DNA of 64,000 bases from an uncultured delta proteobacterium (GTDB lineage: Bacteria; Myxococcota_A; Polyangia; Fen-1088): NCBI GenBank assembly GCA_963767925.1, contig CAVYGB010000008.1:1472001-1536000 (forward strand). The letters are read 5' to 3'. Position 1 is the first letter of the stretch. Every line of letters begins with the position of its first letter. The notes below the pieces were generated by a model. That model did not search any database. It was not told the origin of the DNA and saw nothing but the letters and a program-made list of their open reading frames with translations. Positions 17,025 through 26,806 of this stretch are shown here, piece after piece. Both the position numbers and the translations under genes were made by a program.

Positions 17025-19106
17025 ATGAGTAGCCGCACCTGAACTCGTAGCTCAGCTTCGCCTATCACGGCGTCTCGTCTCCTTGCGCTTCTCGCCAGCA
17101 TCGCTATGGCCGCCTGTGATCAGCCGAATCGGTATGATCCTACGTTGCATGGTTTTCAGCCAATGGTTGTCGACGGAAGTACGTCAGATGGACCAGGCCG
17201 GGGCAGCGTTGGTGCAGGCTCGACTCCAGCGACAGACGGTCCCGAGCCGGATCCTTCGTTGGGTTCGTCCAATTGTTCTACCGGCTTCCATGTCTGCAGC
17301 AGCTCGTGCGTTGAAAACAGATCACCAGAGAACTGCGGAACCTCCTGCGAGGCCTGTCCAGCCATCGGCGGAGGGGTTGCTACATGCGACGGGTTTCGCT
17401 GTGGAGTGGCTTGTCCAAGTGGCCAAAAACCGTGTCTCGATCGCTGCGTGCCCGAAGGCGACGTTTGCGACGGTGCTTGCCCAGATGGAAAGAACTCATG
17501 TGGCGGTGTTTGCGTAGAGGCAACAAGCTTGAGTGCGTGCGGCTCCTCTTGCTCCCCTTGTCCCGCATCACCAGACGGGGTGAGCAGTTGCGATGGGGAC
17601 AGGTGCACACTGACGTGCAATCCCCGGTTTCATCGATGTGGCGACGCGTGCCTTAGCGACAACAACGTCACCACCTGCGGGAACTCGTGTGCACCCTGTC
17701 CTGTACCGGCCGGAGGTCGGGCCACCTGCGATGGCACGAAGTGTGGCGCAGAGTGCCCTGAGGGTTCGATCCTATGTGCCGGCGCCTGCATCCCAAGCAA
17801 CCAAGCCTGCAATGGAGTCTGCCCTTCGGGCCAAAGACAATGCTCCGGAATGTGCGTCCCCACTGACGATGTAAACTTCTGCGGCTCCTCCTGTCTCCCC
17901 TGCCCGACGAAAGACAACTCGGACGCCAAATGCCAGGGCGGAACGTGCACCTATTCCTGCCGAGCGGGGTATCACAAGTGCGGAGATCTCTGTCGGGACG
18001 ATCGCAGCGTTGAAACCTGCGGGAGCCGCTGTGAGCGCTGTCCCTCTCCCACGAACTCGACGCCGAGTTGCAACGGGTCATCTTGCAGCTTCACGTGTAA
18101 TCCCGGAACCCATCAATGCGGCGACGCCTGTGTTGCCCGGACTCAATCTTGCAAGGGCGCCTGTCCAGCCGGACTTCGCGTCTGTGGAGCCGCTTGCGTC
18201 GACGGCAATTGCTGCAACGACGGGGATTGTGGGGCTTGTAAGACCTGCCAGAGTAGCCGCTGTGTGAGTACCGGCAACGGTCAGCCCGGCCCTAGCTGCT
18301 CAGGGGGTACCTGTGCGGGCGACAACCTGACCCGAAGGGTGTGCCAGCAAGGTGAATGCAGAGAGAGCAACACCAGCTGCAGCGGCTTCGGCTGCGACGG
18401 AAGCTCTGCCTGTCGAACAAGCTGCGGCCCAAACACCTTTCGTCGTGGGAACGCATGTGTCTCCTGTGGCGGCAATTCCGGGCGCTGCTGTCCTGGAGAC
18501 ACAAGAGACTGCTCAAATAACTGTGGCGACAGAGGCACCGCACGTTGCAACAACGAAGGAGCCTTCGACATGAGCGGTTGTCCCGCGAATCGGTCACCTG
18601 GCCAGACAGACAGGAGCGCCTGCGGATCTACCTGCGCAAGATGCGGCGGGAATGACGAGTGCCGAGGCGGACGCTGCCAACCACCTTGTGGGGCCAACGG
18701 TGATCAGTGCTGCCCAGGGAACACGTGCAACGGTTCCAATCTGTTCTGTGACGGCAGAAGCTGCGTCCAGAAGCTAGGTCGCGGCAGACCATGCGGTAGC
18801 AACAACAATTGTCAATCTGGGAAATGTGGAGCCGTCACAGGAGAAGGTGTCTGCTGCGACAGTTGCAGAGACGGCGACGTTTGCAGCAGCGACGGAACCT
18901 GTCGCGGCGGCCCTGGGAAATCGTGCAACCCTCAGGGGTCTAACACCTGCCTCTCTGGCTTTTGCGAACCAGCGGGAACCGGCACGTGCCAGGATGTCAA
19001 CGGAAATCGAATCACGTGCAACCCGAACACGAGTCAAGAAGAAGAATGCATCGTTCCCTTCCATGAATGTCCGGTGACCCAGGGTAGGTGCTCAGAGCCC
19101 TTCTAA
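17025..19106 (+). CDS. Very Cys-rich repeat lipoprotein of atypical lower-GC composition; in-frame TGA at 17040-17042 lies before the signal peptide, so possibly a pseudogene
   Basis: ORF 17106..19106 is about 1/6 Cys. The upstream in-frame sequence encodes SRLLALLASIAMAA-C and an ATG at 17025. Confidence 0.7.
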
Positions 19107-19115
19107 GCATCGGGG

Positions 19116-22100
19116 TCAAGGCGCGGGGGTGAGGGCGCGGGCGGGGAGGGTTAGTTTGGGTTCGGAGGGGCTCGACCAGGAGAGGCGGATGAGGGCGCCG
19201 CCGCTGCTGTCGTAGTACTCGAGGCGGAGCGAGACCGGCACCCCGGCGGTGAGGGCGATGGTGCCGCTGTTTTCGGTCGATCCGTGGTTGGTCCAGTTGT
19301 TGACGAGCTGGACGTCGTTGACCCAGAGGCGCACGCCGTCGTCCGACTGCGTGTAGAAGGTGTAGGTCGCGCTGAAGGCGGGGGTGACCTGGCCGGTCCA
19401 GCGGATCTGGAACCCGTCGGCGGGGACGCCGGAGGCGGGGGCGGCGGTGCCGAAGTCGAAGGCCACCACCCGGTCGGTGCGGGTGAGGACCAGGTCGGAG
19501 GCGTTGAAGGTGCGGGCGTCGAAGTATTCGCCCTTCAGGCCGCAGGTCCGGCTGGCGCAGGCGAGCTGGTCGAGCAGGGCCGAGTGGCGCTCGTCCCCGA
19601 AGGCGAGCATGTTGGACTTCTCCGCGTCGAAGTTGCACAGGTTGGTGACCGGCGAGGCGTTCCAGTCTGCCTGGTTGAAGCCGGAGGCGGCCACCTCGAC
19701 GATCGGCTTGAAGCGCTGGGGCGAAAGGACGCCCCGCTTGGGGTCGCTGCTGGCCGGGTCGTAGGAGGCCAAATACTGCAGGCGGGTCATCAGCTCGGTC
19801 CGGTAGGTGCGGATGAAGGCGTCCTTGATCCGGTTCCAGTCGCCGTTCCGGTTGTCGGGATCGCCCCGCTCGCCGAAGAAGAACGTCTTGCGGGCGTTCC
19901 AGCCGAAGTTCTCGCCGAACTCGCGGTCGAGGTCCCAGGGGACGAAGGACCACTTGCCGGCCGCGTCCTTGTACAGGAAGTGGTTGTGGAAGATGTCGTC
20001 CCAGGGCTCGGACCAGTTCCGGATGGCGATGTAGTTCAACATCGCCTCGATGTCGAAGTTCTGCTCGACGAAGGCCCGGACCGGGACGAGGTTGTCGTTG
20101 CCCGAGTTGGTGTCGTGGAGGTTGCCGGCGACCCGGGCCGCGTCGAGCCCGGAGATGAGGGTGGCGATCTCCGAGGCGTCTTTCCAGTCCCAGGTCTTCC
20201 GCTCGTAGCTGTAGTTGTAGCGGTCGAGTGGCTGGAAGCTGGGGGTGCGTCCGGAGCAGCTCACGCCCAGCGGCTGGCCGTCGGCCCGGCCCCAGGGGCC
20301 CTCCTGCACGCCGGAGTTGCCCGAGGCCTTGAACAGGTCCCCGACCCGCACCCCGGGCAGGGTGGTTCGCCGGAGCAGATCCTCGTCCGGGACCTCGATG
20401 TCGAGGGCGTAGTCGTAGTACCCGCCGTTGACGTACAGGCGCCGGTACCGCACGCGGCTCGACGGTAGCCCGGCCGCGGCGTAGATGTGCTCGCCGACGG
20501 CGGCGTCGAGGCCGGGACAGCTCTGGTTGAGCTTGTTGAGGATCAGGGGATCGCGCCGGCCCTCGAAGCGGGCGTAACGCGGGAAGCTGACGTTCCAGCT
20601 CAGCGCGCGCAGCACCTGGGTGCTGTCGCTGGTCGAGCGGGCCATCATCGGGTTGGGCAGCGGGCTGATCGCCGTGCGGGCCAGGTCGATCTCGCTGCCC
20701 ACCGGGCGGTTCCAGCGGCTCCCCTGGTAGCGGACGCGCACGTCGTAGACCTGACCGTCGGACACGAAGACGGCAGGCACCCGCCCGTCCCAGGTCGAGC
20801 GGATCTGGCAGCGCACCGTCGAGCCCCCCATCGTCTCGGGGACGACGCGCCGGTCGTCGGCGCTCGCGATGTTGACGTTGGTCCAGAGATCGCCCCAGTC
20901 ACGGGCCTTGACGAAGAGCTGGTAGGGCGGCTGGGCGGCGGCGACGGCCGGGCTCACGAAGTAGCCGTGGTGCCGGAAGGGATCGCTCGGGCGGGGCGAG
21001 ATGACCTGCAGCCCGGCGCCGAGATCGGCCAGCACCCGGTAGCGGACGACGCTGTTGTCCGACTGCGCGGGCAGCCGGGCCTCGTACTGGTCTCCCACCA
21101 GGGACATCGTGACGGCGGTGGCGGTCTCGTCGGTCCGCTCGAGGTTGTCGACGAAGTACTCCAGGCGGACCTGCCCCAGCGACCCGTGGGCCGACAATCC
21201 CGCCCGGACCAGCACCTCGTCGGTCCGGCGGATCAGCGCGGTGCCGCTGACCGCCCCCGCGGTCAACGACTGGACGATGCGGGAGGGCGTGCCGGTTGTC
21301 GGATTGGGCTCTCCCGGGGTGGGGCCGTCGACGGGGGAGGGGACCCAGTTCGAGACCTCGTCGGTCGGCAGGTCGTACGACACCCGGGCCAGCGAGACGC
21401 CCCGGTGCCGGTGCGACTCCAGCGGGAGGAGCTCGGGGGCCAGCCAGGTCTCACCGGCGCCGAGGGCGTCGGCTGCCACCGGCCAGGGGAAGCGGTCGTC
21501 GTAGCGGAGGGCGTCCACAGTGGCCCCGGCGGCGTTCTGGAGGAGCACCAGGCCGCCCGAGTTGTCGAGCTCCCCGGCGTAGTTGCCGTGCAGGTCCGAC
21601 AGCTGGAGGCCGTAGGCCGGGACCGCCGCCAGCGCGTCCCGATTCTTGGCGACGACGAGGAAGCCCAGGGCGGAGATGCGCGAGCCGGCGGGGAAGGTGT
21701 AGGTGACCTCGCCGGCCAGCTTCCAGCCGGACAGGTCCAGCTCGAAGTCGGCCCGGTTGTGCAGCTCGATGAACTCGTGCTGGTCCTCGTAGTCCTCTTC
21801 CAGCACGGGGTGGTACATCAGCTCCGAGAAGACCACCGCCGGGGTGGGCGGCGCCCGATCGGGCGTGGTGTCCGGCATCGTGTCGAACGGTCGGTCCGGG
21901 GAGGTGTCCGGGGTCGTGTCGAACGGTCGGTCCGCCGGCATGGTGTCCGCCGGCATGGTGTCCACCGGCATGGTGTCCGCCGGCGTGGTGTCCGCCGGCG
22001 TGGTGTCCACCGGGGCGTCGGGCAGGGGCGCGGAGGTGTCCGGCCCCAGGTCGGGCGGCACGTCCGGGGGCGCGTCGGGGTCGCCGGCCGCCGTGTCGGG

Positions 22101-22472
22101 GTCGGCTCCCGGTCCGTCCGGCAGCGGCCCAGGTAGGTCCATCTCCCCCCCGGTATCCGAACCCAATTGTCCGTCATCCCCCGTATCCGTCGCCGGCGAG
22201 GCGTCGTCGCCCGTCGCCGCATCGGGCGCGTCAGCCGGGTCGCCCGCCTCGGCGGGCCCGTCCCCGACCCAGCCATCGCCGGGCGCGTCCTGGCCACCTG
22301 CGCCAGCCGAGCCGTCCATGCCACCGGCTCCCCCGGTGACCGGAGGACCGTCTACGGGCCGGATGCCGTCGATTATCCCTCCATTGAAGCAGGAGGCGAC
22401 GGTCGTCGCGATGGCCGACAGGAAAACGAGATGGCCGAAGCCTCGGGGACCAGGCGAACTCGATACGAACAC
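19116..22472 (-). CDS. Secreted lipoprotein: D/T/P-rich linker, lamin-tail domain, CotH-type kinase domain and C-terminal PA14 domain
   Basis: Lipobox VASC. LTD motifs VVFSELMYHP..EFIELHN..DLSGWKL. CotH-like motifs VRYQGS, LYVNG, HNHFLY and PWDLD. PA14 motifs GLKGEYF..FQIRWTG..SDDGVRLWVN. Confidence 0.8.
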   Translation of the reverse strand: MFVSSSPGPRGFGHLVFLSAIATTVASCFNGGIIDGIRPVDGPPVTGGAGGMDGSAGAGGQDAPGDGWVGDGPAEAGDPADAPDAATGDDASPATDTGDDGQLGSDTGGEMDLPGPLPDGPGADPDTAAGDPDAPPDVPPDLGPDTSAPLPDAPVDTTPADTTPADTMPVDTMPADTMPADRPFDTTPDTSPDRPFDTMPDTTPDRAPPTPAVVFSELMYHPVLEEDYEDQHEFIELHNRADFELDLSGWKLAGEVTYTFPAGSRISALGFLVVAKNRDALAAVPAYGLQLSDLHGNYAGELDNSGGLVLLQNAAGATVDALRYDDRFPWPVAADALGAGETWLAPELLPLESHRHRGVSLARVSYDLPTDEVSNWVPSPVDGPTPGEPNPTTGTPSRIVQSLTAGAVSGTALIRRTDEVLVRAGLSAHGSLGQVRLEYFVDNLERTDETATAVTMSLVGDQYEARLPAQSDNSVVRYRVLADLGAGLQVISPRPSDPFRHHGYFVSPAVAAAQPPYQLFVKARDWGDLWTNVNIASADDRRVVPETMGGSTVRCQIRSTWDGRVPAVFVSDGQVYDVRVRYQGSRWNRPVGSEIDLARTAISPLPNPMMARSTSDSTQVLRALSWNVSFPRYARFEGRRDPLILNKLNQSCPGLDAAVGEHIYAAAGLPSSRVRYRRLYVNGGYYDYALDIEVPDEDLLRRTTLPGVRVGDLFKASGNSGVQEGPWGRADGQPLGVSCSGRTPSFQPLDRYNYSYERKTWDWKDASEIATLISGLDAARVAGNLHDTNSGNDNLVPVRAFVEQNFDIEAMLNYIAIRNWSEPWDDIFHNHFLYKDAAGKWSFVPWDLDREFGENFGWNARKTFFFGERGDPDNRNGDWNRIKDAFIRTYRTELMTRLQYLASYDPASSDPKRGVLSPQRFKPIVEVAASGFNQADWNASPVTNLCNFDAEKSNMLAFGDERHSALLDQLACASRTCGLKGEYFDARTFNASDLVLTRTDRVVAFDFGTAAPASGVPADGFQIRWTGQVTPAFSATYTFYTQSDDGVRLWVNDVQLVNNWTNHGSTENSGTIALTAGVPVSLRLEYYDSSGGALIRLSWSSPSEPKLTLPARALTPAP
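21931..22013. repeat. Coding tandem repeat with a 15-nt unit, about 5.5 copies (P-A/V-D-T-T/M)
   Basis: TCC(G/A)CCGGC(A/G)TGGTG units at 21931, 21946, 21961, 21976 and 21991, partial at 22006. An adjacent 21-nt duplication lies at 21878 and 21914. Confidence 0.85.
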
Positions 22473-22574
22473 GTTTCAAGAAAAGATCGGCAGAACCCGA
22501 GGGTGGGTGAGGGGTCGCTCGTAGGCACTAGATTTCCCTGGTATCCGCGGTCGGATCTCTTAAATGTACGTCTC

Positions 22575-24499
<1,925 letters not shown>

Positions 24500-24616
24500 C
24501 GGCGGGCGCCGCCAGCGTGGCGAGCAAGGTGGCCGGCAAACTGATCAGCTGGCTCTGTGCGGCGAACGGTGACATTCGCTTGGTCCTCGACCGATCCTGT
24601 GCATAATGTCGAGCCC

Positions 24617-25027
24617 GTGACGCCGCGCTGGTACCGAATTATTCTGGTCTCGGTGGCGTTGGTTGGCTGTGGAGGGGACGAAGACCGGCCCCCAACCTGG
24701 AGCTACATCTCTCCGGGGATCATTCAGCCAAACTGCGCGACCTCCAGTTGTCATAGCCGCGGAGCCGCGGTCTCTGGCCTGGACCTGTCGTCGACGCAAG
24801 CTGGGTACGACAGCCTCTTCAACCAGAGGCTGGCGCCCAGTGCGTTATTGCCCAACCGACAGATGGTGACCCGCAGGCTGGTCACCCCCGGGAGCCCGAC
24901 GGAGTCCCGGGTGGTCAACATGATGCGTGCCTACGGCGCCAGTCGCATGCCGCCGGACCGGCCACTCGCCGAAGCGGATATCGCGCTCATCGAGGAGTGG
25001 ATCCTGGCCGGAGCAAAGAATGAGTAG
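24617..25027 (+). CDS. Small monohaem c-type cytochrome lipoprotein with a CX4CH haem motif
   Basis: Lipobox LVGC, CATSSCH (24734-24754), LVTPGSPTESR, distal Met in RMPP and terminal EEWILAGA. This resembles planctomycete cytochrome c domains. Confidence 0.72.
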   Translation: MTPRWYRIILVSVALVGCGGDEDRPPTWSYISPGIIQPNCATSSCHSRGAAVSGLDLSSTQAGYDSLFNQRLAPSALLPNRQMVTRRLVTPGSPTESRVVNMMRAYGASRMPPDRPLAEADIALIEEWILAGAKNE

Positions 25028-26171
25028 AGCCATCCAGGCGGGATTGTTTGCCGTAGCCGCCGGGCTGATGTTTTCAGGGACCGCTTTCGCATATCCGCAG
25101 TGGCAGTTCTCGAGCGGCACCAGCCGCTGCAGCCAGTGCCACTACTCGCCCTCCGGCGGTGGGCTCATCAACGGCTACGGTCGTGATGCCTCGGCCGAAG
25201 AGCTGTCCACCTGGGAGGGCGACGGCAGCTTCTTCCACGGGACGATGGACCTGCCGAGCTCCCTGGCCCTCGGCTTCGACGGCCGCTATTCGGTGCTGGC
25301 CCAGAACACGGGCGAGGCCAACGGGACCACCGTGGCCAACTTCCCCATGCAGGCGGACGCCTACGCCCGCCTAGGGCTCAGCGACGCCCTCTCGGTCTAC
25401 GCCAGCCTCGGTTATCGGGGCCAGGTTCGCTCGGTCGATGAGCCGACTGGCACGGGGGCGGCGTTGCCCATCGCCTCCCGCTTCATCTCCCGCGAGCACT
25501 ATCTGATGTGGCGGCCGGCCGCGATGGGCATCTACGCCCGGGTCGGTCGCTTCTTCGCCCCTTTCGGCCTGCGGCTGGCCGAGCACACCACGTACGTCCG
25601 CCGCGACCTGGGCTTCAACCTGCTCGAGGAGTCGTACAACCTGTCGCTCGGATACCTGCAGAGCGGCTACGAGATTCACGTCACCGCCTTCATGCCCGAC
25701 CTCCTTCGGAACGTCGGCGGAAATGAGCTGGGCGCGGCCGCCATGCTGGAGCGGCGGGTGGGGGACGCGAGCGCTCTGGGTCTACAAGGTCGCTACGGCC
25801 AGAGCGACGATCTCACCCGGTTCATCGGAGGGATCTTCATGAAGACCTACCTCGATTCAACCCGGGCCTTGATCCAGGCGGAGCTCAACGTCGTCCACTC
25901 GACGGCCACCGAGGGGGGGGCTACTACCGATGGGTTCGTCGGGTATGCCGGTATCAGCTTCTTCCCAACCAAGGGTCTTTGGGTTACACCTTTCGCTGAG
26001 CGCAGGCAGACCAGCATCGCAGTGCGTGATACCGCGACGGACGCGGGCGGCGTGCAGATCAATTGGTTTCCCTACCCGCACTTCGAGCTGACCTGGATGG
26101 GTAGGTTCCAGATTCCGGCGGGCGACTCCACGGCCCTCACCAGCATGTTCTTCTTCCACTACTACCTATGA
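25020..26171 (+). CDS. Cyc2-like fused cytochrome-porin: N-terminal CxxCH plus a predicted outer-membrane beta-barrel
   Basis: Signal peptide ending AFA, then YPQWQFSSGTSRCSQCH (25128-25142) and ..GGGLINGYGR. The remainder has alternating amphipathic strands and an aromatic C-terminus FFFHYYL. Confidence 0.68.
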   Translation: MSRAIQAGLFAVAAGLMFSGTAFAYPQWQFSSGTSRCSQCHYSPSGGGLINGYGRDASAEELSTWEGDGSFFHGTMDLPSSLALGFDGRYSVLAQNTGEANGTTVANFPMQADAYARLGLSDALSVYASLGYRGQVRSVDEPTGTGAALPIASRFISREHYLMWRPAAMGIYARVGRFFAPFGLRLAEHTTYVRRDLGFNLLEESYNLSLGYLQSGYEIHVTAFMPDLLRNVGGNELGAAAMLERRVGDASALGLQGRYGQSDDLTRFIGGIFMKTYLDSTRALIQAELNVVHSTATEGGATTDGFVGYAGISFFPTKGLWVTPFAERRQTSIAVRDTATDAGGVQINWFPYPHFELTWMGRFQIPAGDSTALTSMFFFHYYL

Positions 26172-26806
26172 AAAAACCAAAGCTCGCAAAGCAGTTGGCC
26201 CTCTGTGCGATCGTGGTGGTGGGGGCGTCTTGCGCGGCAGAGGTCCCCCCCGACGTCCCCTCCTGGGATCTGGACGTCTATCCCATCCTCCGCGGGAGCT
26301 GTGGCCACTGCCACGGCGTGACCGTGAACGGGATGGCCCAGCCCCTGACCCGTTACGACGTCTGCGACTCCGCAGCGTTCTCGGGCAAGGGGCTCAACGT
26401 GAGCCCCGGCGCGACCGCGGGCGCGATCCTCATCTCGATGTTCGTGAAGCCGCAGGCCGGCGGGGCGCGGATGCCGCCGCCCCCCGCGGCGCCCCTCACG
26501 GACTACGAGCGCACGGTGCTCGAGCGCTGGGGAAAGAACCCCAAGTGCAACAAGCAGGTTCCCAACCGCAAGCCCCTGCTCCGGGTAGTGCAGGCGCTGG
26601 CCAGGCAGGGCGGTCGAGCCAGCGTGACCCTCGAGGTGAGTGATCCCGATGGCGACCAGGTGATGGGCAAGGCGAAGCTCGGCGGCGCGGAGTTCGTCAT
26701 CCAGGGCTCCGGGCGCTGGCCGATCGAGTTCAACGGCGCCGGGGCCAACGATCGGCTCACCGTCTCGCTGTTCGACGGCTACGAGGCCGTCGACTTCATG
26801 CCCTGA
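26168..26806 (+). CDS. Monohaem c-type cytochrome lipoprotein with a C-terminal Ig/cadherin-like domain
   Basis: Lipobox GASC, VYPILRGSCGHCHG (26300-26314), RMPP...LERW, then NRKP...SDPDGD. Confidence 0.72.
   Translation: MKKPKLAKQLALCAIVVVGASCAAEVPPDVPSWDLDVYPILRGSCGHCHGVTVNGMAQPLTRYDVCDSAAFSGKGLNVSPGATAGAILISMFVKPQAGGARMPPPPAAPLTDYERTVLERWGKNPKCNKQVPNRKPLLRVVQALARQGGRASVTLEVSDPDGDQVMGKAKLGGAEFVIQGSGRWPIEFNGAGANDRLTVSLFDGYEAVDFMP

Follow-up and report, generated by a model that had tools for sequence, protein, structure and literature searches.

The locus considered here raises the question of how three small haem proteins, one of them fused to a porin, could work together at the outer membrane of a myxobacterium. 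The window, that is, the whole stretch of DNA analysed, comprises 64,000 nucleotides from an uncultured delta proteobacterium (contig CAVYGB010000008.1, positions 1,472,001 to 1,536,000). Gene A (24617..25027, +) encodes a 136-residue lipoprotein cytochrome c, gene B (25020..26171, +) a 383-residue fused monohaem cytochrome-porin, and gene C (26168..26806, +) a 212-residue predicted lipoprotein cytochrome c with an Ig-like tail. The interpretation preferred here, with slightly better than even probability, is that the triplet forms a three-monohaem electron wire across the outer membrane, with A outside, the haem of B in the barrel lumen, and C inside. An original prediction, made from the DNA letters without database searches, had described three co-oriented overlapping genes, and rereading of the frames confirms both the coordinates and the two overlaps (A/B at 25020-25027; B/C at 26168-26171, ATGA). 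One haem-c motif per gene had also been claimed, which is correct for B and C, but the motif of A is CX4CH rather than CxxCH. Of the lipoboxes assigned to both flanking genes, that of A (LVG-C) stands, while the GAS-C of C is non-canonical, with a lipobox-like Cys ahead of the haem motif in 43 of 48 homologues under a loose pattern.

The centre of the module is B. Its signal peptide (25020-25091, +; the AFA/YP end was placed by eye and is conserved in homologues) is followed by the haem motif CSQCH (25128-25142, +; mature residues 13-17) and LINGYGR, within a small, helical haem domain (mature residues 1-57), and the chain ends in FFFHYYL. These features, including a cleavable signal peptide and a haem motif about 12 residues into the mature chain, are as originally described. 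The CxxCH motif is present in 117 of the 120 listed homologues, the exceptions being two N-terminal fragments and one CNQFH. AlphaFold2, supplied with a 109-sequence alignment, predicts 16 strands plus the haem domain (predicted local distance difference test, pLDDT, 87.3; predicted template-modelling score, pTM, 0.85), so that the proposed beta-barrel is recovered as a predicted 16-stranded porin. The top structural match is OprP (2O4V; Z 24.1, root-mean-square deviation 2.8, 287 residues aligned), which ties with other 16-stranded porins. Conserved lumen residues include Arg65, Arg150, Arg243, Glu264, Glu332, and several His. Three histidines stand out in the B clade: His165 in loop L3 (25584, +; 114/115), His330 (26079, +; 106/115), and the C-terminal His356 (26157, +; 111/115), the last also found in all 75 proteins of a bridge family described below. 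Hydrophobic alternation indicates that His356 points into the lumen, where strand 16 ends on the periplasmic side, and neighbours the junction of the haem domain with strand 1. In this model, His356 is the first candidate for the sixth ligand of the haem of B. Met86, conserved in 112 of 115 sequences, was rejected as a ligand, as it falls on the lipid-facing phase.

The complex of B, A, and two haems was predicted with a score of 0.86, compared with 0.00 for the best of three controls. Of 157 solved complexes, 116 attained the mark applied to this score, as did 2 of 215 mismatched pairs; this calibration is only roughly applicable here, since own alignments were used and haem was included. The A-B runs agree in no less than 72% of their contacts, with a partner pLDDT of 85 or more. 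A PDB sequence search found no solved relative of B, which makes it less likely that the prediction merely reproduces a known structure. The 47 residues of B that contact A all fall on, or at most three residues from, the loops after odd strands, with none at the even turns and none in the haem domain. The loops after odd strands span 3-26 residues, compared with 2-5 for the even turns. In standard porin topology, the side with the long loops is the extracellular face. Taken together, the contacts, the topology, and the loop lengths would place A on the extracellular face. On A, the contact residues are 25-27, inside CX4CH, and 87-104, around Met94; conservation at this interface is 0.61, against 0.41 elsewhere (core residues excluded; positions not independent). 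The best-predicted contact, loop L7, has 15-16 residues in 37 of 37 A-linked barrels, compared with 12-31 in 18 barrels linked to a MYXO-CTERM-type haem protein. A is thus predicted to be a surface lid on the extracellular loops of B. The reverse arrangement, with A periplasmic and C at the surface, was a first guess from gene order and was dropped after the A-B model.

Genetic linkage of the three genes is strong. Among 41 loci with close homologues of B, 34 have enough flanking sequence on both sides, and 31 of these carry the A-B-C triplet. A search of 401 genomes sampled from the phylum with the A profile gave 12 matches at E<1e-20 (6 of the 12 in the profile), all of which adjoin a B match. 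The linkage of the flanking cytochromes to the barrel therefore extends to other genomes. The original prediction had assigned B two dedicated lipoprotein redox partners; both genes are indeed linked to it, and the A-B partnership is in addition predicted by modelling. B homologues number 580 matches among 7999 scored candidates, form 2054 clusters at 50% identity, and occur in 126 of the 401 genomes. Titled records belong to Polyangia, Myxococcales, Myxococcota, Haliangiales, or unspecified proteobacteria, and all named proteins are annotated as 'hypothetical'. Six relatives (L218-L222, L225) have a barrel with two N-terminal CxxCH motifs, three of them with an A-type gene upstream.

The barrel also occurs in other arrangements. 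A sister survey covered 40 hand-picked regions from the 126 genomes, in which 37 barrels were called. Upstream, 12 of these barrels have a YceI gene (Pfam confirmed 4 of them) and 12 have an A-type gene; 18 are followed by a small monohaem protein. In 17 of the 18, this protein ends in Gly/Ala-Cys, a hydrophobic stretch, and basic residues, the MYXO-CTERM layout according to our own three-part test, although the NCBIfam MYXO-CTERM model gave no match on the five sister monohaems tested. Tripartite tails of the MYXO-CTERM type sort proteins to the cell surface (PMC11980579). The MYXO-CTERM-type monohaem and A never occur in one locus. The simplest reading of these gene orders is that each barrel would have one surface cytochrome (A or the MYXO-CTERM haem protein) and one periplasmic partner (C or YceI). 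Ten loci (L192, L193, L194, L197, L199, L200, L201, L204, L205, L217) have the operon YceI, haem-barrel, MYXO-CTERM-type monohaem; the haem motif of that monohaem resembles the barrel's own, and a conserved distal His/Met is lacking. In four others (L020, L021, L023, L026), two more haem lipoprotein genes lie directly upstream of A, giving a run of five haem genes; the additional products are a PSCyt1-like protein of about 200 residues and a protein of about 560 residues with a C-terminal CxxCH and no Pfam match.

No family above threshold was found for A, B, or C in Pfam, NCBIfam, or PDB sequence searches. A carries its lipidated Cys at codon 24668 (+), the CX4CH motif (CATSSCH) at 24734-24754 (+), and a likely distal Met in RMPPD at 24947 (+). 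The CX4CH motif is able to bind haem c, as in cytochrome c3, and NCBIfam holds a model named CxxxxCH/CxxCH. A CX4CH gene lies upstream of B in 35 of 36 testable loci, so the spacing is conserved; all 33 aligned copies keep C23, T25, C28, H29, and M94-P-P-D unchanged, and 32 of 38 homologues have a lipobox-like Cys ahead of the haem motif (loose pattern). Against PSCyt1 (PF07635), A scores 13.4 bits (E 0.13), below the 22-bit gathering cut-off, and two homologues scanned score 23.6 and 19.8 bits. The A family profile matches both domains of FoxE (5MAB) at E 1.3e-4 through the pattern PG.P..S..L..RMPP..WI..GA. FoxE is also the top hit in a fold search of A alone, which is weak (E 1.7, Z 4.7); modelled without haem, the haem-motif region of A has a pLDDT below 50.

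For C, the predicted lipidated Cys is at codon 26231 (+), CGHCH at 26300-26314 (+), and the likely distal Met at 26471 (+). Its best match among solved structures is PccH (4RLR; E 1.4e-5), with which it has the start pattern Y..DV.PI...C..CHG in common, and Pfam PccH appears in two C homologues at E 3e-4 and 0.024, both below cut-off. Fusions were considered as a clue to the side of C. The search gave four longer hits plus P0190; the four that were read, P0351-P0353 and P0190, look like frameshift read-throughs with garbled junctions. P0164 likewise looks frameshifted, and consequently no fusion evidence bears on the membrane side of C. An orphan paralogue of C (47% identity) is encoded elsewhere in the host genome (C10:325370-326044, -; L227:6371-7045), with no barrel or A gene beside it.

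B was also compared with Cyc2. Cyc2 is defined by the fused monohaem cytochrome-porin architecture together with the motifs AXPXFAR[QK][TY] and PXL and a length of at least 365 residues, with OprP named as one template for it by Keffer et al. (PMC8406198); the structure of Cyc2 is unsolved (PMC13741234), and no Cyc2 structure appeared in the fold searches of B. B has the signal peptide, the single N-terminal CXXCH, the predicted 16-stranded OprO/OprP-like porin, and, with 383 residues, the length. However, AXPXFAR[Q/K][T/Y] upstream of CXXCH was found in none of 109 close and none of 115 broad homologues, B itself reading AYPQWQFSSG, and PXL after CXXCH was likewise absent (0/109 and 0/115). 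For comparison, metagenome motif matches (at least 120) were reduced to 61 complete single-haem proteins, picked by motif without assignment to Cyc2 clusters, whose three largest groups have 30, 21, and 8 members. These groups match each other at 98-99.7% in HHalign, while their direct match to B is 8-21% with close homologues and 26-77% with the broad family. The bridge family, 75 proteins with the motif PRFAAR..CxxCHVNPTGGG, reaches 100% to B; with the three canonical groups it reaches 97% (320 columns), 96% (103 columns), and 94% (339 columns), and its reversed controls against these groups give 0.4-1.8%. One bridge-family protein, P0274, carries the name Persicimonas caeni in its source record. 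In a FastTree of 58 sampled rows, the 17 canonical rows stand apart from B and the bridge family with support of 100; given its long branches, the tree shows separation and not rooting. Three profiles from 59 of the 61 canonical-motif proteins (E<1e-3) match another host protein, C10:1458721, but not B. Judged by sequence comparison, B is a remote Cyc2 relative via the bridge family and not a Cyc2 member, because the defining motifs are absent and the canonical profiles skip it. The divergent Cyc2-like barrel that had been proposed is consequently retained as a fused monohaem porin with remote homology, and its filing under Cyc2 is withdrawn. The second host protein (C10:1458721-1459905, -; L226:6722-7906) is a cytochrome-porin with the canonical motif PAFARKY..CGACH, and lies in the run DUF4266, DUF3570, cytochrome-porin, lipoprotein, dihaem cytochrome c. 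Cyc2 has already been reported from 'Deltaproteobacteria/Myxococcota' (PMC12442345), and one Myxococcota metagenome-assembled genome is among those with iron-oxidation genes (PMC12501874).

In the proposed electron wire, A would form a lid over the outer loops of the barrel, and B would carry its haem within the pore, in the half nearer the periplasm. The sixth ligand of this haem may come from the lumen-facing His356 or from His165 of L3, and electrons would cross loop L3 between the haems of A and B, with C acting as the carrier on the periplasmic side. The three full-length GspD secretins of the host genome could offer an export route for A, and CcmE with three cytochrome-c-assembly genes (cytochrome c maturation system I) is also present. 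The flow of electrons would more likely be inward, from reduced extracellular compounds (Fe(II), humics/quinones, lysed prey) to the respiratory chain, with alternative complex III and a haem-copper oxidase as the sink, providing supplementary energy for an aerobic heterotroph. This direction is modestly favoured because the nearest solved relatives of A and C, by weak matches, are FoxE and PccH, both tied to electron uptake (PMC10654088, PMC13591261). It is also favoured because an NrfD-type gene lies in an alternative-complex-III-like cluster beside one of the two COX1 genes, and because neither NapC/NirT nor MtrB_PioB was found in the host genome (84% complete); ResB and RuBisCO were not found there either. 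A broader proposal, which we hold tentatively and at somewhat less than even probability, is that the triplet represents a minimal class of conduits made of three single-haem proteins: a CX4CH lid, a porin haem ligated by the terminal His, and a periplasmic carrier. The barrel would be modular, with sisters using a MYXO-CTERM cytochrome and a YceI quinone carrier.

Several observations weigh against the wire. The complex test was also passed by 7 of 44 blindly picked neighbours, and conservation is lower in the interface loop residues of B (0.49) than in the remaining residues of its odd loops (0.63). A gap between haems of more than about 14-20 Å would break the wire. The fold match of A to FoxE lies below the usual noise level, and the match of C to PccH is weak, covering just the 26 residues of the haem-binding start. 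The low conservation of C (mean identity 23%), its frequent tandem duplication in relatives (up to three copies), its Ig-like tail, and its orphan paralogue are also compatible with a surface protein. The L7 lengths and the gene swaps track kinship and are not independent events. Across 75 loci, neither a quinol dehydrogenase nor an oxidase gene is a recurrent neighbour of the triplet. Finally, the myxobacterial cytochrome c TfcP is unlikely to carry electrons (PMC8833165).

The lid geometry would serve equally well in a haem-dependent solute channel or sensor, in which A is a substrate-binding lid and the haems serve to bind or sense either a ligand or the redox state, with no respiratory role. 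Such a lid has a precedent in SusD, which caps SusC. The conserved Arg, Glu, and His residues of the lumen could be those of a selective pore, YceI, a lipid/quinone-binding family, precedes 12 of the 37 sister barrels, and PSCyt1-like haem domains are common accessory modules in the host genome (19 motif matches); TfcP provides a further precedent (PMC8833165). However, the neighbourhoods of the triplet show no recurrent TonB, transporter, or signalling gene, the partners are almost without exception cytochromes whose His/Met motifs are conserved, and the gain of a second haem by B in L218-L222 and L225 suits an electron relay. We consider this explanation unlikely.

Two further explanations retain electron transfer in another form. 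The haems could serve an outward protective or assimilatory device, reducing Fe(III)/Cu(II) at the surface for uptake or removing NO, hydroxylamine, or peroxide. A cytochrome P460-family gene following the triplet in several loci fits this, as do the clustered lumen His, which could bind metal, and a weak LbtU siderophore-porin match (E 0.0014; 18 bits, where the cut-off is 90). The P460-type gene, however, adjoins the triplet in just 5 of 75 loci (L029, L209, L210, L211, L212; Pfam identified cytochrome P460 at L029 and L160) and is absent from this window, iron-uptake genes are not recurrent neighbours, and His/Met class I haems are usually high-potential, which makes such a device quite improbable. 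Alternatively, B may work just like Cyc2, oxidising dissolved Fe(II)/Mn(II) at its haem in an open pore, with A and C as periplasmic acceptors. Here the shared architecture and remote homology count in favour, together with the aerobic respiratory chain of the host. Against this, the Cyc2 motifs are absent, A is predicted to cover the outer mouth, the host already has a separate canonical-motif cytochrome-porin, RuBisCO was not found in the 84% complete genome, and the family is spread through Myxococcota, a phylum of mostly heterotrophic predators. Even with the mature start YP found in Cyt572 (AANA/YPGF, PMC13741234), an oxidase of this kind appears decidedly improbable.

The electron wire, if correct, would be encoded by an operon with its own promoter, as the invariance of TGCATAAT upstream of A suggests. 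This A/T-rich box (24600..24607, +), 9 bases 5' of the GTG start of A, is identical in all 4 upstream regions aligned and keeps A/T at would-be wobble positions of a 71% GC genome. It is likely, on the basis of this pattern, a -10 promoter element of a near-leaderless transcript; a consensus scan found no full sigma-70 promoter, and an alternative in-frame start at 24599 may exist. The original prediction had also noted that codon choice in parts of the block looks less GC-biased than in speA, a difference that could hint at horizontal transfer. The difference holds weakly, with GC content at third codon positions (GC3) of 0.79 in A, 0.84 in B, and 0.90 in C, compared with 0.93-0.99 in the in-frame speA segments. 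Mean GC3 in related loci, however, is 0.85, 0.88, and 0.85 for A, B, and C, compared with 0.89 for their neighbours, and the triplet follows speA in L001, L003, and L007 as well, two of which, L001 and L007, also have oligoribonuclease downstream. A horizontal origin of the block was therefore rejected; vertical inheritance is favoured, and recent transfer is not indicated. No plasmid match was found for one distant member of the barrel family. The speA gene itself (arginine decarboxylase, window 22572-24493) is split by frameshifts, probably assembly errors, into five segments, and the triplet is intact. Further upstream lie a secreted 1118-residue protein with LTD, CotH kinase, and PA14 domains (19116-22472, -) and a 666-residue cysteine-rich repeat protein (17106-19106, +) with a low GC3 of 0.61 and no Pfam match. 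Elsewhere in the host genome, a cytochrome with ten CxxCH motifs and one CX4CH (C1:117862-119301, -; L228:7218-9906) has a membrane protein and a Tll0287-like haem protein as its neighbours on either side. Among sequencing runs, none of RNA was listed as a carrier and two of DNA contained small shares, and no habitat is claimed.

No description of the barrel family or the triplet was found in the literature, including the available parts of PMC12442345, PMC12501874, PMC10367259, PMC10654088, and PMC12133095; supplements and figshare/Dryad files, which could list relatives, fall outside this search. New elements are the placement of A as a predicted outer lid, the bridge that links B to Cyc2 by homology, the His signature, and the YceI/MYXO-CTERM swap. 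Through the conserved terminal His356, the question of the sixth haem ligand in cytochrome-porins becomes testable: electron paramagnetic resonance of one Cyc2 indicates two axial ligands (PMC13692758), whereas models of Cyc2 show only one (PMC13741234). If the electron wire is real, extracellular electron transfer would extend to a large unannotated family missed by Cyc2-motif screens, and predatory aerobic myxobacteria would gain an unrecognised route for taking up electrons from their surroundings or for releasing electrons to them.

Compared with known systems, B shares with Cyc2/Cyt572 (clusters 1-3) the signal peptide, the one N-terminal CxxCH, the 16-stranded OprP/O-like barrel of more than 365 residues, and LxxYGR after the haem motif. 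It differs in lacking AXPXFAR[QK][TY] and PXL, in its PxGGG insertion, in His165, His330, and His356, which have no counterpart among the conserved residues of two of the three canonical groups, and in being separated from the 17 canonical-motif sequences by a long branch. It also has dedicated lipoprotein partners, one of them a predicted lid on its outer side. Cyc2 is regarded as an iron oxidase that works alone; if the present reading is true, the same fold would serve as a wire core as well. FoxE of Rhodobacter ferrooxidans, whose two domains are matched by the A profile, carries two haems and belongs to phototrophic Fe(II) oxidation, whereas A is a single-domain lipoprotein with CX4CH. 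The likeness of C to PccH of Geobacter sulfurreducens is limited to the haem-binding start, and C differs in its predicted lipidation and its Ig-like tail. The closest parallel in organisation is provided by MtrCAB and the Geobacter Pcc systems (Oma-Omb-Omc), which likewise have three adjacent genes for a barrel, a surface lipoprotein cytochrome (predicted in the triplet), and a periplasmic cytochrome (here a role proposed for C). However, these conduits use two long multihaem chains and thread haem through a haem-free 26-stranded barrel, whereas the triplet has three monohaem proteins, A and C with one haem motif each, and a haem fused to a 16-stranded barrel. A lidded relay of three monohaems would, if true, be a far smaller conduit design.

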